Part shown: one piece after another, positions 3,205 through 49,953 of the stretch
Layout: each line of letters begins with the position of its first letter
Numbering within the stretch: the first letter of the stretch is position 1
Source: an uncultured Clostridia bacterium
GTDB lineage: Bacteria; Bacillota; Clostridia; Christensenellales; CAG-314
Assembly (NCBI GenBank): GCA_947629985.1
Contig: CANRFV010000001.1
Location: 252,407-316,406 of the forward strand
Direction of reading: 5' to 3'
Length of the DNA stretch: 64,000 nt
Position numbers and translations under genes: made by a program
The notes under the pieces: model-generated
What the model saw: only the letters and a program-made list of their open reading frames with translations
Databases searched by the model: none
What the model was told of the DNA's origin: nothing

Positions 3205-3205
3205 A

Positions 3206-4981
3206 TTACAGTCCCTCCTCGTCTTCCAACGTTTGCAAAGCGACCATATTTTGATACTCCTTGCAACGCGACAGCAGTTCTTCGTGCGAACCGACGTCGA
3301 GTATTTTACCGTTGTCGAGATAAATTATTTTGTCAAGCCCTTGCACGGTAGAAATACGATGCGCGATAAAAATAGTTGTTTTACCCGCACGCGCTTGTTT
3401 AAGATTGCTAAGTATTACGCGCTCCGTATCGGTATCCACGGCGGAAACAGAGTCGTCCAAAATAAGTATCGACGCGTCCTTCATCAGGGCACGCGCAATG
3501 GATATACGCTGTTTTTGTCCGCCGGACACAGTTACGCCCCTTTCGCCCAGCACGGTTTGATACGCAGCGGTAAACTTGCTGATATTGTCGTCTATATCCG
3601 ACAGTTGCGCGGCATATTTTACGTCTTCGATGTCGCCGCGGTCGGTTGCAAAAGAGATATTGTTTTCGATCGTGTCGGAAAACAAAAAGTTGTCTTGCGG
3701 AACGTATGCGCAAAAATCACGCAAACTTTTTACGGTAATGTCGTTTACGTCCTTGCCGTCCACAAACACCGTTCCCTTGGGAACGTTGTAACAACGCAAA
3801 ATCAAATCGGCAACGGTTGTTTTGCCCGAACCCGTTTTGCCGACAATGCCGACGTTTTCGCCCGCTTTTACGGTAAACGAAACGTTTTCGAGCGAATCGT
3901 AATCCGCACCGGGATAGCGGAACGTAAGGTTGTCAAAGCGTATGTCGCCTTTTACTTCCGTTACGTCTGTCGCTTCGGGAGCGTCGGTAACGTCTTGTTT
4001 GGCGTCCAACAGATCCGATACGCGTTTGAGCGACGCTTTGCCGCGCGACACCATTTCGATAAGTTCGGTTATTGCCATAATGGGCCATACAACCGAGTTG
4101 AAATAGCCGATAAACTCCATCAGTTGCCCCGCATTGAATGTAGTTTGATAAACCAAAAACGAACCGTAGCCCAAAATGACGCATATTACCGATTCGACAA
4201 ACAAAGTAACGGCAATGTTAAGCAACGTGCTTATGCGAGTGTAGGTAACGTTAGCGTTTTCGTTCTTTTTGTTCAGCCATCTGAACGCAAGCAATTCTTT
4301 AAATTCCTTTACAAACGCTTTAATTACCGCTATTCCGGAAAAACTTTCCTGCGCGAAATCCGACAGATCCGAAAACGCCTGCTGACGAACTTGCCATTTT
4401 AACGTCATATACTTACCGACAAGAACGCTTACTACCAACATAAGCGCCATCGGAATAAGCGACAACAGCGTCATTGTGGAATCCATCTTAAACATTTTAT
4501 ATAGCGACATTCCACCCATAAACAACGCGTCGCAGGTCATCATTATACCGCTGCCGAAACAATCCTGAACCGTTTCCAGATCGTTGGTAAACAGCGACAT
4601 CATATTGCCGATCTTGTTGCGCGAATAAAATTCGCAGGACAAATCCTTGCAATGATCGAACATTTGACGTCTCAGATCACGCTCAACTTTTATTCCCGAA
4701 CCAAACAGACAAATACGCCACAAAAATCTGCCGCTTACTATAACGGCGACAATTATGAACATAGGCTTGCATATATACTGCCACAAAAAGTCCAAATCGA
4801 ACGTTAACAAAGTACCGTCTTGCAATGTTACGGAACCGTCGTTTATGCCGTTGACGACCATGCCGTAAATTTCGGGAATAATCAATTGCGCATAATCTAC
4901 GGCAACAAGCGCTGCGATACCGATAAGTATCATCAGCGCGTATTTCAAATAAAATTTATTGATGTATTTGCCGAAAATCAT
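3206..4981 (-). CDS. ABC exporter, fused permease/ATPase (partner half-transporter)
   Basis: 591 aa. Walker A GKTGSGKTT, signature VSGGQKQR, Walker B ILILDDSVSAVD. Abuts the downstream half-transporter with a 1-nt gap, suggesting a heterodimer. Confidence 0.9.
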   Translation of the reverse strand: MIFGKYINKFYLKYALMILIGIAALVAVDYAQLIIPEIYGMVVNGINDGSVTLQDGTLLTFDLDFLWQYICKPMFIIVAVIVSGRFLWRICLFGSGIKVERDLRRQMFDHCKDLSCEFYSRNKIGNMMSLFTNDLETVQDCFGSGIMMTCDALFMGGMSLYKMFKMDSTMTLLSLIPMALMLVVSVLVGKYMTLKWQVRQQAFSDLSDFAQESFSGIAVIKAFVKEFKELLAFRWLNKKNENANVTYTRISTLLNIAVTLFVESVICVILGYGSFLVYQTTFNAGQLMEFIGYFNSVVWPIMAITELIEMVSRGKASLKRVSDLLDAKQDVTDAPEATDVTEVKGDIRFDNLTFRYPGADYDSLENVSFTVKAGENVGIVGKTGSGKTTVADLILRCYNVPKGTVFVDGKDVNDITVKSLRDFCAYVPQDNFLFSDTIENNISFATDRGDIEDVKYAAQLSDIDDNISKFTAAYQTVLGERGVTVSGGQKQRISIARALMKDASILILDDSVSAVDTDTERVILSNLKQARAGKTTIFIAHRISTVQGLDKIIYLDNGKILDVGSHEELLSRCKEYQNMVALQTLEDEEGL

Positions 4982-5157
4982 TGGTGCCTCTTAAAAGTAA
5001 TAATCGAAAACAGTTTAGCACCAACCGCACAGTCCGTCAACAAAAAATCGAACTAAAACGTATAATAAATTTATTTATCAAATATTACATTCCGAATATA
5101 GATAATTATTATTTAATCTTGGTAATATTGCAAAAAACAGTCGAACTTTAGACTGCG

Positions 5158-5883
5158 TTAGGATAATTTCAATAATTCGATCAAACTTTTCAGCGGCGAA
5201 AAACTGTGCGCGATGTATCTGTACATCATTGTCAATGCGTCTTTAAGAATTTCCAATGTCAAATTTATGTTTTTAAGACGGCTATACGGCATATTTTCCA
5301 CCAAAGTACATGCGCCGACGACCTGTGCGCCGAGCGCAGTGCTTTCTGCCGTGCGACACTCCTTGCACACAAGACCGCCGCGCTGCAAATCGAGATAGAC
5401 CTTGTCGGTAGGACGATCGCACACCACGCAATTGCCGAACTGCAAGCCGAAACCTTCCGTTTTGGTAAATCCCAACAAATAACGCAACACTACCAGCAAC
5501 GGTTCGCAACCGTCGGTCAACGCCTGCAACGCTTTGAGAGTTTGAATAAACAACTGAGATTCCTGTTGCTCTTCTTCGGTGTAATTTACCAAGCACTCGG
5601 CTATTACGCATGCTGCATAATACACGGTTATGTCCTGCCGCAAAGCATAAAAACTTTCTATCTGTTGGCATGTTTTAAGAGTAAAACGGTCGCCGTTTTG
5701 CGCCAACTCGTACTGACCGAAACAAAACTGGTCGGCGGCAAATTTCAATTTTGCACCGCTTTTGCGAATGCCTTTGGCGTGTACCGAAATTTTGCCGTAT
5801 TCCAACGAATACAGCAAAATAAATTTATCGTTTTCCCCATAGTCTGTCGCTTTGAGCATCAGCGCTCTTGTCGTTACGTCCAT
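5158..5883 (-). CDS. recO: DNA repair protein RecO
   Basis: 241 aa with an N-terminal OB-fold-like region and a CxxC...CxxC zinc motif (CVVC...CKEC). Conserved position downstream of era-yqzL. Confidence 0.9.
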   Translation of the reverse strand: MDVTTRALMLKATDYGENDKFILLYSLEYGKISVHAKGIRKSGAKLKFAADQFCFGQYELAQNGDRFTLKTCQQIESFYALRQDITVYYAACVIAECLVNYTEEEQQESQLFIQTLKALQALTDGCEPLLVVLRYLLGFTKTEGFGLQFGNCVVCDRPTDKVYLDLQRGGLVCKECRTAESTALGAQVVGACTLVENMPYSRLKNINLTLEILKDALTMMYRYIAHSFSPLKSLIELLKLS

Positions 5884-5965
5884 CTTGCGTCAATTCTCTG
5901 TAAAATAAGTAATATGCGGGATTACCCGTTTCTTTGAAAAGTTTCCACGCGGTATCTTTGATCAT
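5825..5965 (-). CDS. yqzL: YqzL-family small protein (46 aa, below ORF-track cutoff)
   Basis: Hand translation gives MIKDTAWKLFKETGNPAYYLFYRELTQDGRNDKSADAQSDRLWGKR. GGAGG lies 6 nt upstream of the ATG. The W-K-L-F-x-x-T-G-x-x-x-x-Y-L-x-Y motif and the era/recO position match B. subtilis yqzL. Confidence 0.6.
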   Translation of the reverse strand: MIKDTAWKLFKETGNPAYYLFYRELTQDGRNDKSADAQSDRLWGKR

Positions 5966-6020
5966 AGCAAACCTCCACACGTTAAAGTTTGCGTAATTAA
6001 ACAAGATATATGCAGTAAAC

Positions 6021-6908
6021 TTATTTGCGATTGGTATAGCCCAATTCGTTAAGTACCGACGGATTGTTGCGCCAATCTTCTTTGACTTTTACCCACAACG
6101 TCAAAAAGACGGGGGCTTGAAGCATTTTTTCGATACTTTCACGCGCGTGAGTACCGATATTTTTGATCATTGTGCCGTGTTTGCCCAAAATAATGGGTTT
6201 ATGCGACGCTTTTTCGACCAATACCGTGGCGTCGATGTTCCAGGTATTGCCTTGCAGTTGCATTAAATTTATTTCTACGCCCACGCCGTGAGGAATTTCG
6301 TTTTCGCAAGCGACAAGTACCTTTTCGCGTATTATTTCGCACACGATAAAACGCTGACTTTTGTCGGTTACGTCGTCTTCTTCGAAATACATCTCGGTGC
6401 CGCTAAGATATTTTTTCAACCCCTGTTTAAGTTCTTCTACGCCGCGATTGCGTTTGGCTGATACGCAGTAAACTTCCTTTATGCCGTCTATTGCGTTCAA
6501 TTTTGCCAATTCGGGCATAAGTTTTGCGGGTTGAGTAATATCTGTTTTGGTAACGGCCACAACGACGGGAGCGTCCGATTTGGCATAACGCTGTATTTCG
6601 GCAATTTCGTGCGCGTCTATACCGTCGTGTCCGTCAACGGCGACCAAAATGCAATCGACGTTTTGCACGGCGCTGTTTATACTGCGCAGCATATAATCTC
6701 CGAGAGCGTTTTTGCTATGCAAAAAGCCGGGCGTATCCACAAAAACCATCTGGCTGTCGTCGTCCGTCCATATACCCAAAATATTGTTGCGCGTTGTTTG
6801 CGGTTTGGGCGAGATTATCGAAACTTTTTGTTTTACGAATGAATTGAGCAATGTGGATTTGCCCGCATTGGCTTGTCCCACTATTGCAATAAAACCCGTC
6901 TTGCGCAT
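6021..6908 (-). CDS. era: GTPase Era
   Basis: 295 aa. G1 GQANAGKST, G3 DTPG, G4 TKTD, and a C-terminal KH domain. Confidence 0.95.
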   Translation of the reverse strand: MRKTGFIAIVGQANAGKSTLLNSFVKQKVSIISPKPQTTRNNILGIWTDDDSQMVFVDTPGFLHSKNALGDYMLRSINSAVQNVDCILVAVDGHDGIDAHEIAEIQRYAKSDAPVVVAVTKTDITQPAKLMPELAKLNAIDGIKEVYCVSAKRNRGVEELKQGLKKYLSGTEMYFEEDDVTDKSQRFIVCEIIREKVLVACENEIPHGVGVEINLMQLQGNTWNIDATVLVEKASHKPIILGKHGTMIKNIGTHARESIEKMLQAPVFLTLWVKVKEDWRNNPSVLNELGYTNRK

Positions 6909-16971: not shown

Positions 16972-17150
16972 ACGCGCAAAGAAATGGCAATTTGCGAAAA
17001 CCGCATTGAAAAAGTGTGCGGTACAGCGATAAAATAATAAGATTGCTTGACGAAATAATGTTCATAAATGGAATAATGTTCGTAAATGGAAAAGGAAGGC
17101 GTAAAAACGTCTTCCTTTTCCGTTGCAACTATAAAGCGCTGTTGCCGCTA

Positions 17151-17285
17151 TGGTGCCGGTGATTTGGACAGAACCGACACGTTTTCTCCAACATCGGATT
17201 TTGAGTCCGACGCGTCTGCCCTTAGCCGAGCGAGCAATGCGAGCGAACGCCACGGAGCGTAAGCGTAGTATTCCACCACACCGAT
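17151..17285 (-). pseudogene. tRNA-Leu(CAA)-like copy with 49-nt D-loop insertion and degenerate T-arm
   Basis: Collinear with the intact gene but carries an insertion at 17221-17269. The 5' acceptor strand is ATCGGTG, and the T-arm has diverged to GTCGGTTCTGTCCAAAT. Confidence 0.6.
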
Positions 17286-17320
17286 ATAAAAAAACGCAAG
17301 CCGCTACGACTTGCGTTTTA

Positions 17321-17380
17321 TGGTGCGGTGAGACTTGTCCTTGCAAAGCAAGGTAAGCGAAGTAAAACGGAGCGCTACAT
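17321..17380 (-). ncRNA. Chimeric module + tRNA-Leu 3' fragment ending in CCA, with its own terminator (copy 1)
   Basis: Minus strand reads ATGTAGCGCTCCGTTTTACTTCGCTTACCTTGCTTTGCAAGGACAAGTCTCACCGCACCA. It is followed at 17286-17319 by an AAACGCAAG...CTTGCGTTTTTTT terminator. Expression has not been tested. Confidence 0.35.
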
Positions 17381-17483
17381 TATTTCGGTATCGCACACAC
17401 AAAAATCCAAAGGCAGCAATGGAAAAGGAAGGCGTAAAAACGTCTTCCTTTTCCATTGCAACTACAAAGCGCTGTTGCCGCTA

Positions 17484-17618
17484 TGGTGCTGGTGGTGGGA
17501 CTTGAACCCACACGTTGTCTCCAACATCGGATTTTGAGTCCGACGCGTCTGCCCTTAGCCGAGCGAGCAATGCGAGCGAACGCCACGGAGCGTAAGCGTA
17601 GTATTCCACCACACCGAT
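17484..17618 (-). pseudogene. tRNA-Leu(CAA)-like copy with 49-nt D-loop insertion
   Basis: Identical to the intact tRNA from the D-loop GG to CCA. Insertion at 17554-17602 lies between AAT and GGCAGA. The 5' acceptor strand ATCGGTG mispairs at 3 of 7 positions. Confidence 0.65.
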
Positions 17619-17653
17619 ATAAAAAAACGCAAGCCGCTACGACTTGCGTTTTA

Positions 17654-17713
17654 TGGTGCGGTGAGACTTGTCCTTGCAAAGCAAGGTAAGCGAAGTAAAA
17701 CGGAGCGCTACAT
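17654..17713 (-). ncRNA. Chimeric module + tRNA-Leu 3' fragment ending in CCA, with its own terminator (copy 2)
   Basis: Same sequence as 17321-17380, one repeat unit later. Terminator at 17619-17652. Confidence 0.35.
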
Positions 17714-17816
17714 TATTTCGGTATCGCACACACAAAAATCCAAAGGCAGCAATGGAAAAGGAAGGCGTAAAAACGTCTTCCTTTTCCATTGCAACTACAA
17801 AGCGCTGTTGCCGCTA

Positions 17817-17902
17817 TGGTGCTGGTGGTGGGACTTGAACCCACACGTTGTCTCCAACATCGGATTTTGAGTCCGACGCGTCTGCCATTCCACCACACCA
17901 GC
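17817..17902 (-). tRNA. tRNA-Leu (anticodon CAA), class II, CCA encoded
   Basis: Hand-folded. Acceptor GCTGGTG/CACCAGC; anticodon arm TCGGA-CTCAAAA-TCCGA; long variable arm GTTG-GAGA-CAAC; T-arm GTGGG-TTCAAGT-CCCAC; discriminator A plus CCA. Confidence 0.9.
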
Positions 17903-17915
17903 ACAATGCTTATAT

Positions 17916-17944
17916 AATATATCACAAAAACTCGGTTTTATCAA
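17916..17944 (-). promoter_or_regulatory. tRNA-Leu promoter
   Basis: Minus strand reads TTGATA-17 nt-TGATATATT (extended -10), ending 13 nt before the tRNA 5' end. Confidence 0.55.
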
Positions 17945-17999
17945 CAATTTTACACTCATTTGTAAAAATTTTTTGCTAAATTCATTGCCGCTAAAAATC

Positions 18000-18028
18000 T
18001 TGCGCTTATTGTTGCCGTGTGATATAAT
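18000..18028 (+). promoter_or_regulatory. tRNA-Arg promoter (divergent from the tRNA-Leu promoter)
   Basis: TTGCGC-17 nt-TGATATAAT (extended -10), about 27 nt before the tRNA 5' end. Confidence 0.55.
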
Positions 18029-18054
18029 ATGTACGCAAATTAAATTTCAAATGC

Positions 18055-18130
18055 CTATCCGTAGTCTAATTGGATAAAATTGTGCCCTCCGACGGCATCG
18101 TTTCGGGTTCGAGTCCCGACGGGTAGACCA
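18055..18130 (+). tRNA. tRNA-Arg (anticodon CCG), CCA encoded
   Basis: Hand-folded. Acceptor CTATCCG/CGGGTAG (one G-U pair); anticodon arm GTGCC-CTCCGAC-GGCAT; T-arm TCGGG-TTCGAGT-CCCGA. The D-stem has one C-A mismatch. Confidence 0.8.
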
Positions 18131-18245
18131 TTGTCGTACTACGCCTTGTAGTCGCATCCGAACGGCGCGCCCTTTGCGGCGTGCCTTTTCGTTTGTTCCT
18201 TATGGCTTGTACGCCAATTCGCCTTTCCGCCGTGAGAACGAAATA

Positions 18246-18375
18246 ATGTAGCGCTCCGTTTTACTTCGCTTACCGAGTTTTCTCGGACGAGTCCCGACGG
18301 GTAGACCATTGTCGTACTACGCCTTGTAGTCGCATCCGATCGGCGCGCCTTTTGCGGCGTGCCTTTTCGTTTGTT
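18246..18375 (+). repeat. Module + duplicated 3' end of tRNA-Arg plus trailer and terminator
   Basis: 18246-18288 is ATGTAGCGCTCCGTTTTACTTCGCTTACCGAGTTTTCTCGGAC. 18288-18375 repeats 18110-18197 (T-loop C56 to CCA plus the 67-nt trailer) with 2 substitutions. Confidence 0.85.
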
Positions 18376-18397
18376 TGTTTTGGTAGGGGTGCCACAA

Positions 18398-24884: not shown

Positions 24885-27800
24885 CTAAAACGCTTCGTAC
24901 TTGACAACTCCGCCGTACTTTGTTCCGTTTGCAGTATCGCGCTGTTGAGCGGAATAACTGTTGGCGCTGTTGCGATCGTACATATAAAAGTTGAAGTCGT
25001 ACACGCCGGCAGCCAAGGGCAATTTGTCGCCCTGGTGTTGAATATTTACGTCCGAAACCTGTTTGAGAATGTCGATGTTGACATTAAGGTGCATATAATC
25101 GCCCAAAGATGAGTTGAGAGCGTCGATGTCCAACTGCGAATAGTTTCTGCCGCCGCCGTAAAACGCTATTCCGCCGTGAACAAACTGTTTGCCGTCCCGG
25201 TTGATCAGCAAAGCGTCGTACGGTGATTGCGATGCGACATGCTGCAACATCTTGTTGACTTCGAGTTTGAGCCAACCGAGCGCGTTGTCCGACGGAGATT
25301 CAATGAGCGTACTGCTGTCTACAAGCGCAATATCTTTCCAATCGTACAAGCGAACGTCGCCTTGCAAACGCACCACCGACGCAAATGACGTACCGCCCGA
25401 TTGTTGCCATGCGGACGTCATTTTGGCTACGTTTTCGTTTACGCTGCCTTGATATTTTTGTTCGGAGCCGGTGGTCAGCAAATCGCCCGCGAAATTGCTT
25501 TCCACGCCGATAGTAAACAGTCCGCTGGTCTCCAAAACGGAATCTTTTATTGTCAAATCCGTCATAACATAATGGCTGTAAAAGTAACTGTCGTCGTACA
25601 GTTTGCCGTAATTGTTGCTGACGCTTGAGCCTTGCGTAGGATAGGGATTGCCGTTGGCGTCGGTAAGTTGCGGAGCCGCCTGCGAAACACCGTGCGCGCG
25701 CAAAGCGCGATTTGCACCCACTTTTACCAAAAACTCTCTGCCCTGAGAAATAATACAACCCTGTATTACGACGGTTATGCGCTCGTTGTCGCACCCCTTG
25801 TTGTCGGCTATGTCGTTGATAAAGTAATTGTTTCCGTTGCGATTGCCTCCGTAAACGCGCACCACATTGCGCCCGTTGCTTATGCGGCAGTTGATAACCT
25901 GTACGGAAGCGTTGATCTCCAAGGTAGTTCCCACAAGATTGAGATACGACAAATTGTAACCGTCGGAATCGCTCATTTTGTCGTCGCCGCAACCGCGCAG
26001 ATTTACTCCGTACAGTTTGACGCCGTCGGTACGCATCAAAAACGCGCAGTTGTCCTGACCGGCAACACTGGCTATTTCCTGATATTTTACAAAATACAGC
26101 GGGCCCTTGTAGGTATCTATCAACGGCTTGTCCTGACTGTCCCACGCCGCAGTAAAGTATTCGGCATTTACGGTATTGCCGTTGCCGTAAACGTCGTTCT
26201 TGAATTCCATTACGTACGAAACCTTGGCGTTGTCTATGCTCTGTTTGGGATCTTGCTTGTACCACTCGGTATTGTATGTGGATTGCATACGTCCCAACAT
26301 ACTCGCGCGCTCTTGCAACGACAAAACCGCACCATTTGCGTCGGTGCCCAACATTATGTCGTTTAGCAATACCACTTTGTCGCCGGCGGCAGTTGCCTGC
26401 ACAAGTTGGGGCGCGTTGGATACCGCTACGGCGTCGTGTACGACATAAAACGTTACGGACGCACGAGCGTTTCCGCCGAAAGTAGCGGCGCCCTTCCACT
26501 CGGCGGTAAGAGTAAGTTTGCCGCTGCCTTTTGCAACAAAATACCACTTGCCGTCTTCGACAACGATGTCGCCCAACGTTTCGTCGGATATGTAGCAGTT
26601 CAGATTGTCCGCGTCAAACTCGGTTACGGCCGCGCTGCCTACCGTTCGTATATTGAGCAAATACCTGTTTTGCACCTTGTTTTGTCCGTCGTAAACCTTG
26701 CCCGCAACTGTATAATACATCGCCAAATCGTGGGAAGCGCCGAATTCGTCGGGCATAATTATGTTGGTTATACGCGTAACTACCGATACGGTAATTTGTT
26801 TACGCTCGCACAACAGTTCGCCGTCGCGGCGCGCTTCCGCCCACAAAGTAAATTCCGAATTGCGTTTTGCCGTTACCGAACAGGTTTTGCCGTCGGCGCT
26901 TACACTGATCACGTCCCTGTCGGCGCCGTCTACGCCCCACAGGAATGTTACGCCGTCCGCAACTACAACGGGAACGGCGCTGAATTTGGTGGTTACGCCG
27001 TTAAGCACGGATATTTTGCCATCGGTTATGGGACGTTCCGAATTGAGCGCGAAGTCGAAATCGCCGAAACCGAACTCTACCTGCGCCACTGCGTTGCCCG
27101 CCGCAATTTGACCCACAAAACGTTCGCCGTCAAAAGAATCGTTGACGGTAACATCCATAATATATCGGTGGCTGTCTATTTTTTCACGGACGACCGCGGT
27201 TGCGTATTCGCTGGTAAATACGGGTTCGCTGCCGGGAATACGGCGTTCGACATACAAACTGACCGTTTTGGAGTTTTTGTCGAGCAGTACCGACGACGTA
27301 TTAGCCACGCCGTTTACCGTAAGGTCGCAATTGCTCGGCATACTTACGTTAAGCGACACGGTGCGCTCGATGTTTCCGATGGAATCGGGAACGCTTACTT
27401 TAAGTTTAACTTCGCCGCTGAACGGCAACAAAACGGTTTTGCCGCCGAAATCGACGTCGGCTTTGCCTTTGGTTACTTCCACCGAGTAATCCGTAAATGC
27501 GTCGGGCGTGATCGCCGCGCCGAAACCGTAAATGCCCGTGGATAAGTCGGCGGAATAATTGCCGTCCGCGTCCGCCGTAAGCACGTCGGCGCCGTCCTTG
27601 TTAAGGAAAAACCGCAAACCGTAGGGCTGAGTGGAATACACCGATACGTTCAGGCTGTCGGTAAAGCCCTTGTCGTTGCTGGTGGCAACTATCGTTGCGT
27701 TGCCTTCGCTCTTGACGAGCAATTTGCCGTTTGCGTCTACATCGGCAACTTGGGGGTTGTCGCTTGTTAAAGTGTAGCCTTTTTCGGAAGCGTTGTTGGG

Positions 27801-28001
27801 CGCAACTTCGGCGGATACAAAGTGTTCCGCGCGTTCCGCCATATCGATGGCTACCGATTTGGTAATATCGTCGTCAAACTTGACCGTAATGCCGTTTGCC
27901 GAGACGTTTACGCCCAAACTGACCATATTTACGGACGAGAAAATAATAAGCATAAATAACAGCGGCACAACCGCAATAAGCGCAATAACCGTTTTACGCA
28001 T
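24885..28001 (-). CDS. Large secreted or surface protein with Ig-like (Big_2-type) domain and beta-helix-like C-terminal half
   Basis: 1038 aa with an N-terminal TM/signal anchor (MRKTVIALIAVVPLLFMLIIF). Big_2-like segment LTSDNPQVADVDANGKL...ATSNDKGFTD. The rest is repetitive and beta-rich. 1-nt TGATG overlap with the upstream permease. Confidence 0.7.
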   Translation of the reverse strand: MRKTVIALIAVVPLLFMLIIFSSVNMVSLGVNVSANGITVKFDDDITKSVAIDMAERAEHFVSAEVAPNNASEKGYTLTSDNPQVADVDANGKLLVKSEGNATIVATSNDKGFTDSLNVSVYSTQPYGLRFFLNKDGADVLTADADGNYSADLSTGIYGFGAAITPDAFTDYSVEVTKGKADVDFGGKTVLLPFSGEVKLKVSVPDSIGNIERTVSLNVSMPSNCDLTVNGVANTSSVLLDKNSKTVSLYVERRIPGSEPVFTSEYATAVVREKIDSHRYIMDVTVNDSFDGERFVGQIAAGNAVAQVEFGFGDFDFALNSERPITDGKISVLNGVTTKFSAVPVVVADGVTFLWGVDGADRDVISVSADGKTCSVTAKRNSEFTLWAEARRDGELLCERKQITVSVVTRITNIIMPDEFGASHDLAMYYTVAGKVYDGQNKVQNRYLLNIRTVGSAAVTEFDADNLNCYISDETLGDIVVEDGKWYFVAKGSGKLTLTAEWKGAATFGGNARASVTFYVVHDAVAVSNAPQLVQATAAGDKVVLLNDIMLGTDANGAVLSLQERASMLGRMQSTYNTEWYKQDPKQSIDNAKVSYVMEFKNDVYGNGNTVNAEYFTAAWDSQDKPLIDTYKGPLYFVKYQEIASVAGQDNCAFLMRTDGVKLYGVNLRGCGDDKMSDSDGYNLSYLNLVGTTLEINASVQVINCRISNGRNVVRVYGGNRNGNNYFINDIADNKGCDNERITVVIQGCIISQGREFLVKVGANRALRAHGVSQAAPQLTDANGNPYPTQGSSVSNNYGKLYDDSYFYSHYVMTDLTIKDSVLETSGLFTIGVESNFAGDLLTTGSEQKYQGSVNENVAKMTSAWQQSGGTSFASVVRLQGDVRLYDWKDIALVDSSTLIESPSDNALGWLKLEVNKMLQHVASQSPYDALLINRDGKQFVHGGIAFYGGGRNYSQLDIDALNSSLGDYMHLNVNIDILKQVSDVNIQHQGDKLPLAAGVYDFNFYMYDRNSANSYSAQQRDTANGTKYGGVVKYEAF

Positions 28002-29680
28002 CAGATCTCCCCTCCTTCGAATTCGTAATATTTTTTGCCGAGTTTGCCCGTAAGGTAGAAATATGCCGCCACGGCAAACCCTATTGCAAGCGCGCCCGTT
28101 ACAACGTAGGTAATCCAGGACGAAGCGACGTGTTTAAGTTCGGTAAGCACGCGCAACGCCACAACAATACCGCCCACGGCAAACGACGCCAACATACCCG
28201 TTACAATAACGGTGCTTACGGCATTGCCGGATTCCTTTATTTCGCCGTCTTCTTCGGTGGAAAAGCGCGCATGATTGAAGTCGTACCGCGTTGCAACGCA
28301 TACGTTTACAAAGCCGAACAGCGCGCCCACCGCAAATATGAATATTGCGGAATACCACTGCACCATACCCGTTGCGGCAAGCACGACAGCGGATACCAAC
28401 TGCGACAGCACCGCCACAGCCATACTTAAAAATATCTTGGCAAAAAACACCTGTTTGTAACTTAGCGGAAAGGCTTTGACGGTGTAAAACATCTGACCGT
28501 CGCGGCTGACGTTGGTTGCGCAAAAAACATTTGTAAGCGCGCCGAACAACAACGTCAAAAACAGCGCAAGTTCCACATTAACTTGCAAACCGACAAGATT
28601 TTCCACCATAGATGTGCCTACGGTCATACAAAAATACACCATTAACGGCATTATTACCGCAACCGACAAATACGAAAACATATACGACGGGGTGCGGAAA
28701 ATCAACAAAAAGTCCTTTTTTACTATGGACGCAAAAACATTAGACGAAGCGGACATTTTGCCGCGCTTGATGAGATAATTTGCCGTGTCGGCGTTGCGCT
28801 GTTGTAGCGAACGTTGCAAAATAAGGCGAATTATTACCATTGCCAACGCAATGCAAACCGCAAGAGTAGCCGCTATGCCTATGCTTGCAACAGTTATGTT
28901 GCGCGACGTAAGCAGATCCACCAGCCACGCCGCGGGATACAGCACTTTTACTGCGGAAGCGATCGCGGTCATTACGCGCTCGTCAAAGAAATATTTAAGT
29001 TCGTCGCCCAACAACATTTGCTTGACGGCGGACAAAACTATCGAATACAGCCAAAACATAACGCCGAGTACAACCGTTACAAACACAAAGTTGAGTACAA
29101 AGCGCTGTTTCAAAAAGCGTTTTACAAGTTGCACGGGCAAGGCTATAAGCGACGCCAGCGCAATTGTTAACAACGGCAAAATAAAACACAAAATTGCCGT
29201 TACAAGCGCAAAACTCCAACTTTGGGGAGATTTGACGCATAGCGTGATGTTTACGGCAAGCACAGCCACAACGGAAATGAGCAGTTGATAGCCGTAAATG
29301 ATTATCAATTTGGATAAATACAGCGCCTTGGCGTCTACGGGCATTGCGGAAAACAGCCTTACGTCGTCCGCTTCGAATATCTGTCTGTTTATTTGCGAAA
29401 CGGCGCCTACCGTCATAAACAGCACTATTACCGAATACACCACGGTAAGCAACTCGTAGGTACGCGTTGCCACATCGGGCTGACGGTTGGTTTTTACCGC
29501 AAGGTACACGTCGATAAACCTGCCGAAAAACACCGTAAACAACACAACTATACCCACAAGCAACACAACGCCCAGCACAAAGCCCAGCGGATTGAATCTG
29601 CCGCGCCTGTACGGGTAAATTTTTTCCAAAAGGTGCTTTTTTAGCAGAGCGCGCGTTTGAGAAGAGACGTTTTTAGCCAT
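28001..29680 (-). CDS. Multi-spanning ABC-type exporter permease
   Basis: 559 aa from the internal ATG (MAKNVSSQ), with about 12 or more hydrophobic segments. Its start overlaps the ATPase stop (ATGGCTAA). Confidence 0.65.
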   Translation of the reverse strand: MAKNVSSQTRALLKKHLLEKIYPYRRGRFNPLGFVLGVVLLVGIVVLFTVFFGRFIDVYLAVKTNRQPDVATRTYELLTVVYSVIVLFMTVGAVSQINRQIFEADDVRLFSAMPVDAKALYLSKLIIIYGYQLLISVVAVLAVNITLCVKSPQSWSFALVTAILCFILPLLTIALASLIALPVQLVKRFLKQRFVLNFVFVTVVLGVMFWLYSIVLSAVKQMLLGDELKYFFDERVMTAIASAVKVLYPAAWLVDLLTSRNITVASIGIAATLAVCIALAMVIIRLILQRSLQQRNADTANYLIKRGKMSASSNVFASIVKKDFLLIFRTPSYMFSYLSVAVIMPLMVYFCMTVGTSMVENLVGLQVNVELALFLTLLFGALTNVFCATNVSRDGQMFYTVKAFPLSYKQVFFAKIFLSMAVAVLSQLVSAVVLAATGMVQWYSAIFIFAVGALFGFVNVCVATRYDFNHARFSTEEDGEIKESGNAVSTVIVTGMLASFAVGGIVVALRVLTELKHVASSWITYVVTGALAIGFAVAAYFYLTGKLGKKYYEFEGGEI

Positions 29681-30464
29681 TGGGCACGTCCTTTGCGCCG
29701 TTATCTGCGCGTTGTTCGGCTGCCGTGCGTTCGTGCCGTATAAAATATTCTTCAAAGTTGAAGGTGGGGTCGGTCAACATCTTTTCCTTTACGTTAAGCG
29801 TTTCGAGTTGCTGTCCCAAACCCATAATTACAACGCGGTCGCACAGTTGGGCAACTCGGTTGAGCGCGTGCGACGAAAAAATGATACAGTTGCCCTGTTG
29901 AGCGTACTTTATCATAAATTCGCGCACCGCTTCCATTGTGCGTGGGTCCAAACCCGTCAACGGCTCGTCCAATATCCACAATTTGGGACGATGAATAAGC
30001 GAACCCATCATACAGATTTTTTGGCGCATACCGTGCGAATACGAACTGATAAGGTTGTTTATCGCGTCGCCGAGACAAAACACTTCTTCCAACTCTTTAA
30101 GGCGGGCGGCGCGTTCTTCAACGGGCACTTTGTACACCGTTGCCAAAAAACCGATATATTCCATACCCGTCATTTTTACAAATACGGCGTGGTTGTCGGT
30201 TACAAAACCCATATCCGCCTTGGCGGCAAGGGGCTCTTTTTGCACGTCGTGTCCGTTGATGGTAATTGTGCCCTTGTCAAACGGCAACATACCTTCGATA
30301 CACTTGAGCGTTGTGGATTTGCCCGCGCCGTTGTGCCCCAGCAAACCGAAAATTTCGCCCGCGTAGCAACTGAACGATACGTCCTTTATTGCGTAATCGG
30401 CACGTTTGGAATATTTTTTGTACAGTCCTTCTACTTTAAGAACCTGTTGTCTGTCATCACTCAT
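29673..30464 (-). CDS. ABC transporter ATP-binding protein (ABC-2 / drug-exporter type)
   Basis: 263 aa. Walker A GHNGAGKST, signature SYSHGMRQK, Walker B LWILDEPLTGLD. Confidence 0.9.
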   Translation of the reverse strand: MSDDRQQVLKVEGLYKKYSKRADYAIKDVSFSCYAGEIFGLLGHNGAGKSTTLKCIEGMLPFDKGTITINGHDVQKEPLAAKADMGFVTDNHAVFVKMTGMEYIGFLATVYKVPVEERAARLKELEEVFCLGDAINNLISSYSHGMRQKICMMGSLIHRPKLWILDEPLTGLDPRTMEAVREFMIKYAQQGNCIIFSSHALNRVAQLCDRVVIMGLGQQLETLNVKEKMLTDPTFNFEEYFIRHERTAAEQRADNGAKDVPNG

Positions 30465-30608: not shown

Positions 30609-31172
30609 TCAATACGCAAAAGTCAAAACGATGCTTACGTGCGACTCGCCCGATTCGTAACCGAAAGTCAAGCCCGTAACGTGTTCGGTATCGAAGGTAA
30701 TTTCGATTACAACGTCGCTGTCGGGGGTCTTGATGTCGCTTGCAATTTGCAAAAACTCCTTAATGCTGTTCTTGGGGACGGAGCCCTTGAAGGACGTTTC
30801 GGAAATGACGAAATCGTCATTGAAAAATTCATCTTCGAACTTGAGAGCGTTTACCGTTTCGACGGTTTGCGCCTTGAAAGTCGTTTCCGTTTCCGTATAG
30901 GGGTCGTCGGCGTCCAACGAATTGAGTTTGCTTTCCTTGCTTACCACGTCGTATTCGTCGCCGTTAGCGGTATACGTTTGCTCGCGCTTGTATTGCGTTA
31001 TTTTGTTGTGAGTAATTTCCACGGTTTGGGTTACTGCTGTGGCTTCGCATATCTTGGCGTATGCCGCCTTTAACAAGTCCCATTGAGTAGGCACTTTGTT
31101 TTCTACGCAGCCGCTAAGCACTACCGCCAACGCCGCCACGATACAAACAATCAATATAACTCTCTTTTTCAT
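30609..31172 (-). CDS. Lipoprotein, translationally coupled to the giant surface protein
   Basis: 187 aa. Signal peptide with an L-S-G-C lipobox (AVVLSGCVEN). 1-nt overlap with the stop of the 2353-aa gene. Confidence 0.75.
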   Translation of the reverse strand: MKKRVILIVCIVAALAVVLSGCVENKVPTQWDLLKAAYAKICEATAVTQTVEITHNKITQYKREQTYTANGDEYDVVSKESKLNSLDADDPYTETETTFKAQTVETVNALKFEDEFFNDDFVISETSFKGSVPKNSIKEFLQIASDIKTPDSDVVIEITFDTEHVTGLTFGYESGESHVSIVLTFAY

Positions 31173-34100
31173 TACAGTAAACCTCCTTTACGTGTTGCAA
31201 ATGCCACAGCGGCAAGCGCTTGAAGCGTGCCCAGCGTTACAAACAATCCGCCCAAAGCCGCGTCCGCAATGGTTACGGCTGTTTGTACTGTGCGGTCGTC
31301 GCCGTTTGCAATGGCGTTCCAACCGTCGGTAAGCGTGTAGCCTACTTCTATTTCGTCCATTACGTTAGCCAGCGATTCGCTGCTCAAATCTTGCAAAAGC
31401 GGCTCTATTTGCTGTAACAGACCCTTTATTTGTTTAAGTTGGTCAAAGTCGTCCACCGTCAAATCTTGTACGGATTTGCCTTCGGTAAGAGATTTAAGTT
31501 GCGCAAGCAGTTGAACCAATTCCTCGGTCATACCGTTTTCGTCGGTTACAACAACCGTAAACGTGCGGCTGCCGCTGTAATTTACTTCGTCGATCTCTAC
31601 CGTTACGGTGTATTCGCCGGGGGCGGTAATTGCCGCAATGGGCTTGGTTGCAAGCGGTTCGGTAACGCCGTTAAGCACAACAAAGCCTTGCAAAACAAGT
31701 TCTTCGCCCGTAAGTTGCGCGTTGAGTTTGCCGTTTTCCAATGTTTCGGCGCCGCTTATTCCAAAGTTGGCAGACGCGCTGTTGCTCAAATCCAACTTGG
31801 TTACGGTGTAGGTGCCGTCTACAACGGTTATTGTGTAGTTGCCGCTTTGCTCGCTTGCACTGCCCGTAATTACGTAAGAGCCTGCATTTGCGCCCGTGCT
31901 TGCAAATCCAAATGTTATCAGGTCTGCCAACACGTCGTTGTTTACCAATCTGCCTGACGTTACTGTTGCCGCGCCCAAGTCGTCAAGCGAAATTTCGTTG
32001 CCGTTGTATACGCGTGTGAAATCGGGCAATTTTACGGTAATATGTCTGGGAGATACCGTGTAGGTGCCGTCTACCGTTTGCAATTCGTAGTTGGACAATT
32101 CCGATTCCGGCGTGTCGATATGTACTACTATCGCATAGCCGCCGGTAACCACTGCGCTTGCAGATGTTACATTGCATTGCAACGTTACAAGCAACGCGCT
32201 TTGTTCTATCCAGCCGTCTACGTCGTAAGCGCCTTTCAAATCGGCGGTAGCGTCGCCGTAAACCGAACTAAGGTTGTGCGCGGTTACGGTAAGCGGACGT
32301 TTGGTTATTGTGTACGCGCCTGTGCCGTCGGTAAAGGTAATATCGTAGTTGCCGTCGGCGCATACGCCCTTGATGTTGTAACTGTCAACGCGTACGTTGT
32401 TGCTCTTTTGTTCCAATTCCAACGTGATTTCGGGGCGTTCGCTGCCTACCCATTCGCCATCGGTCTTTTCCCACAAGCCTTGTTGCAAAGTGCCTGCCAA
32501 ACCGTCGTAAACCTTGGTTTGCGGTTTGATCTTTACGGTAAGTTGCAATTGCGTAATTTCGTATTGACCGTCCGCGCCGAATTGAATGGTATAGTTGCTT
32601 GCGGATTGCGTTGCCGCGCCCTTTACGGCATAGGTGCCTACGTTCTTGGACGCATTGTCTATGCTAAGCGTAACAAGGTCATTCAAATTGTCGCCCTTAC
32701 CCAACGTGCTACCTTCCGCAAGGGTTGCGGTAAGTTCGGTGGCTTGGGGTACCGCGCCGTTGTATGCTCTGCTTGTGCTTGGCAGATTTACCGTAATGGC
32801 ACGGGGGTTGATGGTAAGCGTGGCTGTACGCGTTTCTTGGTCGTAGTTGTCGTGGCTGATAGTAGCCGTTATTTCGTACGAGCCGACGTCTCTTGCGCCG
32901 CTAAACGCCTGATCTTGTACCGTATAGGTAATTACCGCGCCTTCGGGTGCGCCCGTAACTTTGATTTCGTGCGTTTCGCCGTCGTAAGTTACGGTGTCGT
33001 TGTTGAACTCAAGGTCCTTAAACGCGGCGTTTGTTACGTTGTACTTACCGTTTACAAAACTTACCTTGTAGTTTTGCGGTTCGGCGTCGGCAAGTTGTAC
33101 GGTTATTGTGTATTCGCCTACTTCCGTTTGAGCGGACAAATCTTGTTCACAAGAGATGGCGATGTGTGTGCGGAATTCCGTTTCTTCGCCGTCCACCACG
33201 CCGTCTACCTTGAAAGTAAGCGCTTTGGGTTGCTCGCCGTAAACCGAACTAAGGTTGTCGGCGGTTACGGTTACTGCCTTTTTGTCGATTTGATACGAGC
33301 CGTCAGTAACTGTAATCTTGTAGTTACGTGCGGCGGCAGTTGCGGTTGCGGTTACGGTGTACGTGCCCACATCCTTGGCGGCGTCGGTTATGCTTATTGT
33401 TATTAGCGTACTCAACTCGTCGCCTGTGCCCAACGTGCTGCCGGAAGCAAGATTTGCTTGTATTGCGCTCGCTTGCGGCACAGCGCCGTTGTAATCGCGC
33501 GTGATAGACTGCAGTTCTACCGTAATGGGGCGTGCGGTTATTTCGTAAGCGTCAGTGCCTACCACTGGGGTAATTGTGTAGTTGGTGTTTTTGTTGCCGC
33601 CTTGGTAATTTACAATTTCCAAATTGTATTTGCCCACATCGCGCGGTTGCTGTCCACTTGCAAATTGAATTGTAAGGTCGAGATGATCCCCGGCGCAAAG
33701 GTCCGGTGCGTCAAACGCAGTTTGATCCAATTTGTCGTTGGTTACCGTATTGCCGTCGTAAACAACAGGTGTCTGTTTTTTGAGAGTTACCGTAATGGGC
33801 TTGGCAGTTACGGACCAATTGAATCTGTGCGTGTCGGTGTACACGCCGTTATCCAAGAAGTAGCCGTTTTCAAGGGTTATCGTAACGGTGTAATTGCCCA
33901 CGTTTTGCACCGAGTCTACGCTTGCGCTAACGGTTGCGTTTTCGATTCCCGAGAAATATTTTTCGAACAGACCTACGAGTTCTTCTGCGGTAAAATTAGC
34001 GCCCTTGTATACCAATGAGCCGATGCTTTCGGGTATGTCAAAAATATCTTTCGTTTCGGAGTAACCGCAACCCAATTCGCTGCAATAGCGCGTGGCATGT

Positions 34101-49303: not shown

Positions 49304-49332
49304 TTGACAAATGCGAAATAAAGTTTTATACT
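49304..49332 (+). promoter_or_regulatory. tRNA-Gln promoter
   Basis: TTGACA-17 nt-TATACT, ending 11 nt before the tRNA 5' end. Confidence 0.6.
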
Positions 49333-49343
49333 ATCAATGATAT

Positions 49344-49418
49344 TGGGGTATCGCCAAGCGGTAAGGCAACGGATTCTGACTCCGTCATCCGCAGGTTCAA
49401 ATCCTGCTACCCTAGCCA
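49344..49418 (+). tRNA. tRNA-Gln (anticodon CTG), CCA encoded
   Basis: Hand-folded. Acceptor TGGGGTA/TACCCTA with U1-A72; anticodon arm ACGGA-TTCTGAC-TCCGT; T-arm GCAGG-TTCAAAT-CCTGC; discriminator G plus CCA. Confidence 0.9.
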
Positions 49419-49536
49419 AGCGGGCAACTGCGCTTTTGGTTGCAACGGAAAGGAAGCACTTTTGGGTGCTCCCTTTTCCTTTGCTGTCCTTTTGCTTGTT
49501 GCCCTTTTCTGTCGTGTAGACAGGACAGTTTGAATT

Positions 49537-49684
49537 ATGTAGCACTCCACTGCGTTTCGTTTACCTTGCGCTTCGCTTAGGACAAATCCTGCTACCCTAG
49601 CCAAGCGGGCAACTGCGCTTTTGGTTGCAACGGAAAGGAAGCACTTTTCAGTGCTCCCTTTTCCTTTGCTGTCCTTTTGCTTGT
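49537..49684 (+). repeat. Module + duplicated 3' end of tRNA-Gln plus trailer (copy 2)
   Basis: 49537-49583 is ATGTAGCACTCCACTGCGTTTCGTTTACCTTGCGCTTCGCTTAGGAC. 49583-49684 repeats 49398-49499 (T-loop C56 to CCA plus the two trailer hairpins). Confidence 0.85.
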
Positions 49685-49826
49685 ACACCATATAAGTCAA
49701 TATCATAACTTGCGGGGCCCCCAATAAGACGTAGCGCAGCAGTCTTGTTGGGGAGAGGAGCAACCGCCCGACAGCGGTACCGTCTGCGCTTGCACAGGCG
49801 AGGCTGTCATAGCGCGAGTTGCGACG

Positions 49827-49953
49827 ATGTAGCACTCCACTGCGTTTCGTTTACCTTGCGCTTCGCTTAGGACAAATCCTGCTACCCTAGCCAAGCGGGC
49901 AACTGCGCTTTTGGTTGCAACGGAAAGGAAGCACTTTTCAGTGCTTCCTTTTC
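49827..49953 (+). repeat. Module + duplicated 3' end of tRNA-Gln plus trailer (copy 3)
   Basis: Same module at 49827-49873. 49873-49953 again repeats the tRNA-Gln 3' end and trailer. Confidence 0.85.

Follow-up and report, generated by a model that had tools for sequence, protein, structure and literature searches.

The window examined here, a 64,000-nt stretch of contig CANRFV010000001.1 (assembly GCA_947629985.1, positions 252,407–316,406) from an uncultured Clostridia bacterium, carried five copies of a short sequence module joined to transfer RNA (tRNA) 3′ ends. In the best explanation, the module is the conserved right arm of a ~170–190-bp cassette without genes, here called unit X, which is situated on the 3′ side of tRNA genes within a single clade of gut Clostridia. 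Unit X behaved most like a miniature integrative element of tRNA genes, yet neither an integrase nor a parent element was found for it. The family is lineage-wide and previously uncatalogued, and the window is a sample of it.

Module, junction and layout of unit X

The pattern ATGTAGCRCTCC-N7-TTCGYTTACC occurred exactly five times in the window, compared with 0.01 occurrences expected by chance. The module copies, located by the pattern search, were 17352-17380(−), 17685-17713(−), 18246-18274(+), 49537-49565(+), and 49827-49855(+), and a covariance-model scan of the window returned the same five and no others. Each module was followed by a hairpin, the junction ...GG-A|C56 and a tRNA 3′ end. 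A first-pass annotation made from the letters alone had claimed these five fusions and one junction for all three tRNA identities, and both claims were confirmed at every copy. The tRNA-finder check that it proposed, carried out with ARAGORN together with Rfam, gave only three intact tRNA genes, Leu-CAA, Arg-CCG, and Gln-CTG. The Arg and Gln fragments (18288-18308; 49583-49603 and 49873-49893) were the ends of the resident tRNAs with no differences, and were followed by a duplicated trailer of 105 nt (91% identity) after the Arg fragment and of 131 nt after Gln. Both Leu fragments (17654-17670 and 17321-17337) were degenerate (CAAGTCTCACCGCACCA vs CAAGTCCCACCACCAGCACCA), each with its own terminator behind it. 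This distinction between trailers and terminators was also as the annotation had described it.

Pattern scans of genomes, with one genome per species, yielded 37 loci and a metagenome scan yielded 23 more; loci collected in these scans are given L-numbers (L004, L029, etc.). About 33 of the 37 genome-scan loci belonged to metagenome-assembled genomes (MAGs) of uncultured Clostridia/Oscillospiraceae from the gut of rabbit, human, ruminant, and chicken, and the others were at chance level. The covariance model, built from 39 distinct module copies, gave 83 strong matches when run over 489 kb of DNA from related MAGs and metagenomes. An intact tRNA on the same strand was located ≤700 nt upstream in 46 of the 51 matches with readable upstream context, covering 15 tRNA species, and the tRNA linkage for which such a scan had been suggested was thereby upheld. 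In 34 of these 46 the fragment was within 3 mismatches of the last 21 nt of that tRNA; the others were indel-shifted, truncated, decayed, or interrupted. The junction GG(G)A|C56 was essentially invariant across copies, with tRNA identity beginning at C56. Each MAG contained 3–5 strict copies, all of them linked to tRNA genes. The idea that singleton C34 isoacceptors serve as hosts did not survive as a family rule, because the hosts included Ile-GAT, Ala-GGC, Val-GAC/CAC, Ser-TGA, Leu-TAA/TAG, and Met-CAT.

Module copies were often situated at contig ends, which suggested that the repeats break short-read assemblies. In the NCBI taxonomy, Candidatus Fimimonas is placed under Myxococcaceae, and two module-bearing MAGs (among L031, L008, and L035) are titled Corallococcus sp. 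The sequences and neighbours of these three loci look clostridial, and the Corallococcus/Myxococcaceae label is probably a naming or binning artefact.

The module, described by the first-pass annotation as an element of ~45 nt, was real but was not the whole unit; it formed the core of X (~170–190 nt), which was devoid of genes, and no open reading frame (ORF) was found inside any unit. Every real copy showed one order: an intact tRNA, a trailer (trailerX), an inverted copy, a short spacer, the leader (T)CGAAAT-RAY, the module, hairpin III, GG(G)A, and the segment from C56 to CCA of the same tRNA; X itself would extend from C56-CCA of the intact tRNA to GGA. TrailerX (~100–115 nt) was semi-conserved and began right after the CCA of the intact tRNA, and the inverted copy comprised 8–12 nt complementary to the T-stem/acceptor 3′ strand of the tRNA. 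Homologous trailers of the form ...GGCGAC...GTCGCAACAGAAAAG-hairpin-CTTTTC...GCTTGTCGCC followed many tRNA species (those of the window and 26 trailers in the collected loci), and trailerX was also present without the module behind a tRNA-Arg (L026) and a tRNA-Ala (L006). The duplication was exactly C56 to CCA (21 nt) at many single-copy loci (L004, L016, L018, L019, L022, and L026), and the length varied (21, ~50, 105, and 131 nt) where duplication extended to the trailer.

The two plus-strand loci of the window had the following features.

18055..18130 (+): intact tRNA-Arg(CCG), found by ARAGORN and Rfam
18131..18238 (+): trailerX of the Arg locus, with a long-range stem GTCGTAC/GTACGCC and a terminator-like hairpin at 18164-18185
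18239..18295 (+): A block of the Arg locus, containing the leader, module (18246-18274), hairpin III CCGAGTTTTCTCGG (18273-18286), and A-CGAGTCCC; covariance model 79.5 bits
18288..18308 (+): tRNA-Arg 3′ fragment, C56 to CCA, identical to the gene
18309..18383 (+): second, partial Arg trailerX, 91% identical, with a terminator-like hairpin at 18342-18363
49344..49418 (+): intact tRNA-Gln(CTG), found by ARAGORN and Rfam, with a promoter at 49304-49332
49419..49529 (+): trailerX of the Gln locus, with a long-range stem GGGCAAC/GTTGCCC and a hairpin at 49455-49470
49530..49590 (+): A block, Gln copy 1, with the module at 49537-49565 and the A/T variant of the R15:Y31 pair
49583..49603 (+): tRNA-Gln 3′ fragment, copy 1
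49604..49684 (+): partial Gln trailerX, copy 2
49685..49819 (+): unrelated insert of ~135 nt that replaces the inverted copy and leader and ends in ...GCGACGAT
49820..49880 (+): A block, Gln copy 2, with the module at 49827-49855; pattern and covariance model
49873..49893 (+): tRNA-Gln 3′ fragment, copy 2
49894..49953 (+): partial Gln trailerX, copy 3, through the terminator-like hairpin

The inverted copy of the tRNA 3′ strand was partial in the Arg trailerX (CCGCCGTGA, 18227-18235) and was GTGTAGACAGGA (49514-49525) in the Gln trailerX. The tRNA-Arg(CCG) had a C1-G72 acceptor pair. In tRNA-Gln arrays (window 49685-49819; L028 1700-2060), GC-rich and possibly structured inserts of ~135–330 nt separated a partial trailer from the next module.

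No described equivalent of the unit was found in the literature. Only tRNAs were matched when three loci were searched against Rfam 15 at the gathering threshold and at E<10, with no ribozyme, rtT, transfer-messenger RNA, or transposon RNA; the best non-tRNA scores were ~20 bits against thresholds of 40–110. BLAST of the trailer and module against phage and plasmid collections gave no match. In IMG/VR, the exact pattern gave 0 matches and a relaxed pattern gave 7, all of which were rejected by the covariance model as chance.

Covariation, conservation and turnover

The first and last two bases of N7 paired with each other. Position 1 was a G-C or A-T pair, and position 2 a C-G or T-A pair. The R15:Y31 pair of the module was G-C in 36 copies and A-T in 3, and hairpin III covaried at positions 3 to 5. 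For this three-helix set, 90.4% of the cells in the 39 copies were paired, compared with 75% in shuffled sets, and none of 500 shuffles reached the observed value; the covariation score was 0.434 against 0.173 in shuffles. The proposal that the hairpin changes its sequence and keeps its pairing was upheld by these statistics. Pairing was 29–52% in controls with the 3′ partners slid along the alignment, and the own-versus-cross control for hairpin III gave p=1e-8. A clean double change, CCCGC...GCGGG vs CCCAC...GTGGG, was present in orthologous Ala-GGC copies. Both the N7 type and the R:Y variant grouped by genome, not by tRNA, and an anticodon or identity code in the N7 loop was discarded on that ground. 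A hammerhead-like three-way junction was also discarded, with neither a CUGAUGA core nor an Rfam match.

Whole units aligned with MAFFT gave almost no consensus structure in RNAalifold because indels misalign the stems, and the long pairings were tested instead as own-versus-other duplex energies. The 39 nt upstream of the leader formed a mean duplex of −12.1 kcal/mol with the unit's own fragment, compared with −8.8 kcal/mol with unrelated fragments (p=5e-6); examples of these inverted copy/fragment pairings are GGGAGCGGTAGG with CCTACCGCCCCC and GAGATGGG with CCCATCTC. This upstream strand resembled the actual 5′ strands of the tRNA less than it did the complement of the 3′ strand, as in L018. 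In the long-range stem of trailerX, nucleotides located 2–4 nt after the CCA paired with a segment ~95 nt further on, and compensatory variants were numerous (p=2e-5). On the tRNA-sense strand, the ratio of G-T wobbles to A-C mismatches was 16:3 (trailer stem 6:1, hairpin III ~9:2, and one G-T in N7), whereas the inverted copy/fragment stem had no such asymmetry (8 vs 11). The asymmetry is modest evidence for folding of the tRNA-sense strand. The isolated module and a second module (module B, below) folded no better than shuffled sequence (z about 0), which indicates that the conserved part is mainly sequence and not stem. A stable module hairpin was therefore discarded, and only the short covarying helices were supported.

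No sigma-70-like promoter was found before any module in the window, and promoters were located only before intact tRNAs. Terminator-like hairpins were present inside trailerX, upstream of the module, and after the Leu fragments. Two candidate signals in the leader were rejected: a promoter with AATAAT as the −10 element had no −35 element, was not conserved in motif and was not returned by the promoter scan, and a start–stop ORF (ATG-TAG) was lost in leaders that read GACGTAG or AACGTAG.

The tRNA-Leu locus lay on the minus strand. The first-pass annotation had treated its two sites as fusions of module and fragment; the fusions were real, but the locus consisted of three tandem 333-nt units, each with a tRNA-like sequence, trailer, module, fragment, and terminator, and the tRNA-like sequences of units 2 and 3 were pseudo-tRNAs with the second, 49-nt module (B) in the D-loop. 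Its features were as follows.

17944-17916 (−): sigma-70-like promoter of tRNA-Leu(CAA), from the promoter scan
17817..17902 (−): intact tRNA-Leu(CAA), head of the array; ARAGORN, and Rfam tRNA 58.1 bits
17721..17816 (−): trailerX of unit 1, directly after the CCA, with a terminator-like A/U-flanked hairpin
17663..17720 (−): A block copy 1, with leader CGAAATAAT, module 17685-17713, hairpin III CCTTGCTTTGCAAGG, and GGA-CAAGTC; covariance model 74.3 bits
17654..17670 (−): degenerate tRNA-Leu 3′ fragment that spans C56 to CCA and lacks 3 nt
17624..17652 (−): plain intrinsic terminator, the same as that directly 3′ of tRNA-Leu in the empty-site species L029
17484..17616 (−): pseudo-tRNA-Leu no. 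2; Rfam tRNA 26.6 bits, below threshold
17388..17483 (−): trailerX of unit 2; 333-nt repeat, 96%
17330..17387 (−): A block copy 2, with module 17352-17380; pattern and covariance model
17321..17337 (−): degenerate tRNA-Leu 3′ fragment, copy 2
17291..17319 (−): plain terminator, copy 2
17151..17283 (−): pseudo-tRNA-Leu no. 3, with module B at 17221-17269 and a decayed T-arm and 3′ end (...TCACCGGCACCA)
17085..17150 (−): partial trailerX that closes the array, from repeat comparison

Pseudo-tRNA-Leu no. 2 had a damaged 5′ acceptor strand and module B (17554-17602) in the D-loop before G18G19. The last ~22 nt of trailerX in unit 1, including GTGTGTGCG (17725-17733), were part of a block that was completely conserved between species. 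When the window was compared with L032, from another species, the tRNA was identical at 85 of 86 positions and trailerX was ~65% identical with indels, whereas the 73-nt block that begins 22 nt before the leader and runs to GGACAAGTC was 100% identical; the distal fragment had diverged, and the terminator was ~85% identical. Likewise, a 74-nt core was identical at tRNA-Ala-GGC and tRNA-Ala-CGC of one metagenome contig, with locus-specific trailers and fragments.

Sites without the module and sites with many copies were both observed. In the related species L029, tRNA-Leu-CAA ran straight into the terminator that follows the module-fused fragment in the window, and the trailer behind tRNA-Arg in L026 continued through its hairpin with no module. 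Tandem 226-nt arrays of trailer and module were present at tRNA-Pro(CGG) loci (L056 14700-14977; L057 14450-14961; L060 34-541), where the fragments were cut to ~12 nt (CGAATCCCGTCA). The tRNA-Glu locus of L021 contained six fragments and two module types, and truncated and interrupted modules were present among the loci.

Several further rearrangements were noted at such loci. At tRNA-Glu(CTC) (L019 284-700; L021 3097-4232; L037), a distinct repeat of ~97 nt, present up to three times, was interleaved with module units; it consisted of a terminator, TTGGTGAC (complementary to the tRNA GTCACCAA end), and a tRNA 3′ copy with identity from T55/C56. In L058 (7667-7930), compared with L038/L039, tRNA-Ala(CGC) was followed by the trailer, module, and fragment of tRNA-Ala(GGC). 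This arrangement is a deletion that joined neighbouring Ala loci exactly at the CCA end, and it was the only clear mismatch between a fragment and the adjacent tRNA. Extra inserts of ~31–57 nt were located inside the pseudo-T-loop, between GGGA(C/T) and the T-stem 3′ strand (L015 221-340, L017 2-120, L036 540-660, and L037 40-128), and one of them resembled module B in reverse orientation.

Module B (45–50 nt; core GGCGTTCGCT...CGCTCGGCTRAG) had GCTCC...TTCGCT in common with the first module. Seven of its eight copies in 518 kb were inside loops of tRNA-like sequences, with insertion typically after ...AAT. It occupied the D-loop of pseudo-tRNA-Leu before G18G19 in the window (17554-17602 and 17221-17269), L032, and L026, and the anticodon loop of pseudo-tRNA-Met (L008, and two in L011) and pseudo-tRNA-Thr (L007). 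The window and L032 copies were identical at 47 of 49 positions. Module B was also found within the leader of a first-type module in L021, and a B-like sequence adjoined a tRNA-Ala fragment that began in the anticodon loop.

Larger insertions occupied some of the same sites. In L040, an AT-rich island of 4.6 kb (2260-6870) between the tRNA-Val CCA and trailerX encoded a large serine recombinase (ORF 2668-4305, −) and a surface protein. Its right junction was GGTTCG-N18-CCACCA, compared with N13 in the real tRNA, and its left junction contained an inverted TCGAACC. AT-rich islands at the corresponding position in L023 (1-1490) and L014 (1-2810) had different cargo, a toxin-like pair (M78 peptidase and a DUF4411/PIN protein) and two D12 methyltransferases, respectively, and the L040-type junction GGTTCG-N18-CC(A/G)CCA. 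That the right junction is 5 bp longer than the tRNA end recalls the attP/attB spacing rule of serine integrases; this +5-bp spacing fitted the L014, L023, and L040 islands but not the module junction, for which a large-serine-recombinase attachment (att) reading was rejected. In L021, a 249-aa ORF fragment (1959-2708, +) with Phage_int_SAM_3 and Phage_integrase domains was located in AT-rich DNA, ~400 nt beyond the last of the six tRNA-Glu fragments. The serine-recombinase islands and the tyrosine-integrase ORF mark such loci as active integration hot spots for both recombinase classes. The serine-recombinase islands carried no module and lay between the tRNA and trailerX, which makes them separate, later arrivals.

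Integration, transcription or transposition

Unit X is tentatively read as an integrative cassette that has no cargo and is not autonomous: it would cross over in the T-loop, be moved in trans, and act through folded arms. This reading is plausible, though somewhat short of probable. The cassette would enter by site-specific recombination with the crossover in the T-loop at position 55/56, as tRNA-targeting islands do. The host gene would retain a working 3′ end, supplied by an element-borne copy, and would gain the terminator of trailerX, whereas the other C56-to-CCA copy and the old terminator would be pushed downstream as an attR-like fragment fused to the module. The displaced fragment would then be free to decay, as at the Leu locus, and arrays would arise by new insertions at the intact gene and by unequal crossing-over between the 21-nt repeats. 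The recombinase would be supplied in trans, and the covarying helices and strict conservation of the 73–74-nt core suggest that it would recognise the arm in a folded, single-stranded form of the DNA.

Williams, in 2002, is said to have described T-loop and anticodon-loop crossover sublocations of tyrosine integrases. In the present loci, an intact tRNA and a displaced, direct 3′ fragment bounded the inserted DNA, and the junction was at a canonical sublocation, C56 of the T-loop, in all copies; the junctions of module B were in the anticodon loop, the other canonical sublocation, or in the D-loop. The presence of a terminator in the inserted DNA, the stacking of units, and the decay of fragments are further likenesses to tyrosine-integrase islands. 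In contrast to those islands, X is ~170–190 bp long without integrase or cargo, uses one arm for 15 tRNA species, and combines this arm with covarying helices and an inverted target copy; its core is conserved like a gene and has no phage, plasmid, or viral matches. An island that enters a tRNA gene restores that gene and leaves a fragment displaced (PMC4383910), and with each later integration the older elements are moved outward, with partial tRNAs left behind (10.1101/2020.12.28.424599).

The first-pass annotation had offered attR-type scars or elements like the cis-mobilizable elements (CIMEs) as one reading. It was the best fit to the displaced 3′ fragment, the empty site in L029, the arrays, the decayed copies, and the recombinases at sibling loci, but passive scars did not agree with the fixed, cargo-less architecture, the covarying helices, and the conserved core, and no recombinase was linked to the units. 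CIMEs, as described, have arisen by decay of a specific integrative and conjugative element and are kilobase-scale. Like CIMEs, which have attL and attR without recombination or transfer genes, X is gene-less, has att-like repeats at a tRNA gene and is presumably moved in trans; unlike them, it is fixed, attP-sized, and structured, recurs across genomes, and has no known parent element.

A number of observations weigh against an integrative cassette. No recombinase was inside or adjoining any of the 83 copies, no integrase gene was located within the units next to the att site, and the sole integrase-like ORF, in L021, was outside the units. Searches of genomes, metagenomes, and viral, phage, and plasmid collections, limited to exact patterns and the collected loci, gave neither a larger element bearing the module nor an autonomous parent sharing the att arms. 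Classical integrase elements are dedicated to one tRNA, whereas X has near-identical cores at 15 tRNA species and in each case the 3′ end of the local tRNA, which needs the fragment to be re-specified. A double-stranded circle of 100–190 bp is an awkward recombination substrate. For an overlap region formed by the 7-nt T-loop, it is unusual that identity starts at C56 and not where the loop starts, and an inverted copy, a long-range trailer stem, and covarying hairpins are not ordinary features of attP arms. Finally, the conservation of the core between species looks like purifying selection and not like a scar.

Unit X may instead be a structured non-coding RNA of the 3′ external spacer of the tRNA operon, read through from the tRNA promoter, which is considered possible but rather unlikely. 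The 5′ end of this RNA would be generated by tRNA 3′ processing and its 3′ end by the tRNA-like stem and NCCA formed by the inverted copy and fragment, with the module as a protein- or RNA-binding core. Compensatory changes, as expected of a structured RNA, were found in the two stem-closed domains (the long-range trailer stem, and the inverted copy with its own fragment) and in the N7 mini-helix, R15:Y31 pair, and hairpin III. The wobble asymmetry in the trailer stem, hairpin III, and N7 favours an RNA on the tRNA-sense strand, but it is missing from the inverted copy/fragment stem that would form the 3′ end. The complete conservation of the core between diverged flanks is also consistent with an RNA, although the fragment's acceptor part and CCA have decayed in many copies with the core intact, and shuffled sequence folds as well as the module and module B do. 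The orientation of the unit always follows the tRNA, even at the Arg and Gln loci, which are opposite to nearly all genes of the window, and this argues against a lagging-strand effect on single-stranded DNA. Transcription from the tRNA promoter would have to pass U-tract terminator-like hairpins between tRNA and module, with no promoter before the module, and the islands in L014, L023, and L040 part X from that promoter. The expressed mimics of tRNA 3′ halves suggested by the first-pass annotation may exist: the same hairpins and lack of a promoter speak against them, and the sense-strand wobble excess favours folding of the tRNA-sense strand. Without a mechanism of mobility or duplication, an RNA leaves the neighbouring-tRNA 3′ end unexplained, and it had no Rfam match. 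A precedent exists in the E. coli tyrT operon, the source of rtT RNA, in which 178-bp repeats each end in the last ~19 nt of tRNA-Tyr. X resembles it in having tandem units behind a tRNA, each ending in a tRNA 3′ copy, that may be freed as RNA by tRNA processing; it differs in having no sequence or Rfam similarity and in serving many tRNA identities, whereas tyrT is a single locus of one lineage with no shared module. The rtT RNA is mentioned in 10.1101/2024.07.17.603846.

It is improbable that X, or its 73–85-nt core, is a non-autonomous transposable element that enters the loops of tRNA-like hairpins in single-stranded DNA and either duplicates its target from C56 to the gene end (21 nt) or spreads between existing trailer-plus-fragment scaffolds by conversion. 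Casposases and CRISPR (clustered regularly interspaced short palindromic repeats) integrases duplicate a measured target segment, and the exact 21-nt duplication at many single-copy loci is of this kind, but the duplicated length varies with trailer duplication. The fragment is that of the local tRNA even where the cores are identical (Ala-GGC vs Ala-CGC), the grouping of N7 types by genome is expected of spread within a genome, and small modules do lie in tRNA-like loops (module B in D- and anticodon loops, an insert of ~57 nt in the pseudo-T-loops of L015, L017, and L036, and B in the L021 leader). A tRNA-specific inverted copy would, however, be unexpected of a generic transposon, two different Ala fragments share one inverted copy, and neither terminal inverted repeats nor a transposase were found. 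The repetitive extragenic palindromic (REP) or miniature inverted-repeat transposable element (MITE) reading of the first-pass annotation fell, in its general form, on the low copy number and tRNA linkage: there were no conserved terminal inverted repeats, only 3–5 strict copies per MAG, and a duplication of 21–131 nt that was not fixed. Analogies with the palindrome-associated transposable elements (PATE) of IS200/IS605, with REP and its associated tyrosine transposase (REP/RAYT, GTAG head), and with IS110 bridge RNA were set aside because the end structure, copy number, or target layout did not fit. Plain local tRNA duplication and decay, with the module as an accidental shared sequence, is very improbable and cannot have been the only cause. 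Whole units of 333 nt are duplicated in tandem at the Leu locus, pseudo-tRNAs are present, and unequal crossing-over is clearly at work in the arrays and in the L058 deletion that joins two Ala loci; nevertheless, dozens of genomes and 15 tRNA species show one layout of module, leader, junction, and trailer, with an invariant C56 junction and covarying helices, and conservation is far higher in the core than in its flanks.

A combined possibility, regarded as unlikely overall, is that an undescribed, selected, cargo-less, tRNA-gene-specific element has the 73–85-nt core (inverted target copy, leader, module, hairpin III, and GGA) as its cis-acting centre. It would act as a folded single strand, either DNA or tRNA-operon RNA matured by the tRNA 3′-end machinery, and would be retargeted through the local 3′ end and a matching inverted copy, with module B acting likewise at D- and anticodon loops. 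Integron attC and the CTX-phi attP(+) hairpin are folded, single-stranded recombination sites. As in these, structure is kept in X as the stem sequence varies, and the inverted, target-like pair ~70–90 nt apart could rebuild a duplex that mimics the target. In X, however, the centre is conserved and the stems are variable, neither an IntI/Xer-type partner nor an R/L box consensus was found, and the DNA folding is predicted. The large-serine-recombinase island of L040 and the islands with its junction type in L023 and L014 share the loci of X and have a pseudo 3′ end (GGTTCG-N18-CCACCA) at the right junction, but they are kilobase-scale, with a recombinase gene in L040, a crossover near the CCA instead of the T-loop, and no module.

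Mobile islands classically land in tRNA genes, and displaced tRNA fragments are normally read as passive scars, whereas the DNA that adjoins them here is a tiny, recurrent, structured unit. Its core matches the tRNA itself in conservation and is used at 15 or more tRNA species. If mobile, X would be about the smallest site-specific integrative unit known and a handle on tRNA target switching; if an RNA, it would represent a new tRNA-operon RNA family in abundant, uncultured gut Clostridia. In either case X matters for annotation, as it yields pseudo-tRNAs, tandem repeats, and breaks in MAG contigs, and marks hot spots for recombinase islands.

Chromosomal setting of the window

The window was ordinary core chromosome, with genes for aldolase, Era, PhoH, YqfD, PolA, AlaRS, a GlnRS-type synthetase, DnaB, RecX, and HrcA-GrpE-DnaK-DnaJ. 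No recombinase was present among the 38 window ORFs scanned, in line with the first-pass annotation, which had seen neither integrase nor transposase in the window. Nearly all long ORFs were on the minus strand, and tRNA-Arg and tRNA-Gln, on the plus strand, were apparently head-on to them. A 2353-aa ORF (31172-38233, −) and its large neighbours at 24885-28001, with a Big_2 domain, and 28001-29755 had little or no Pfam annotation.

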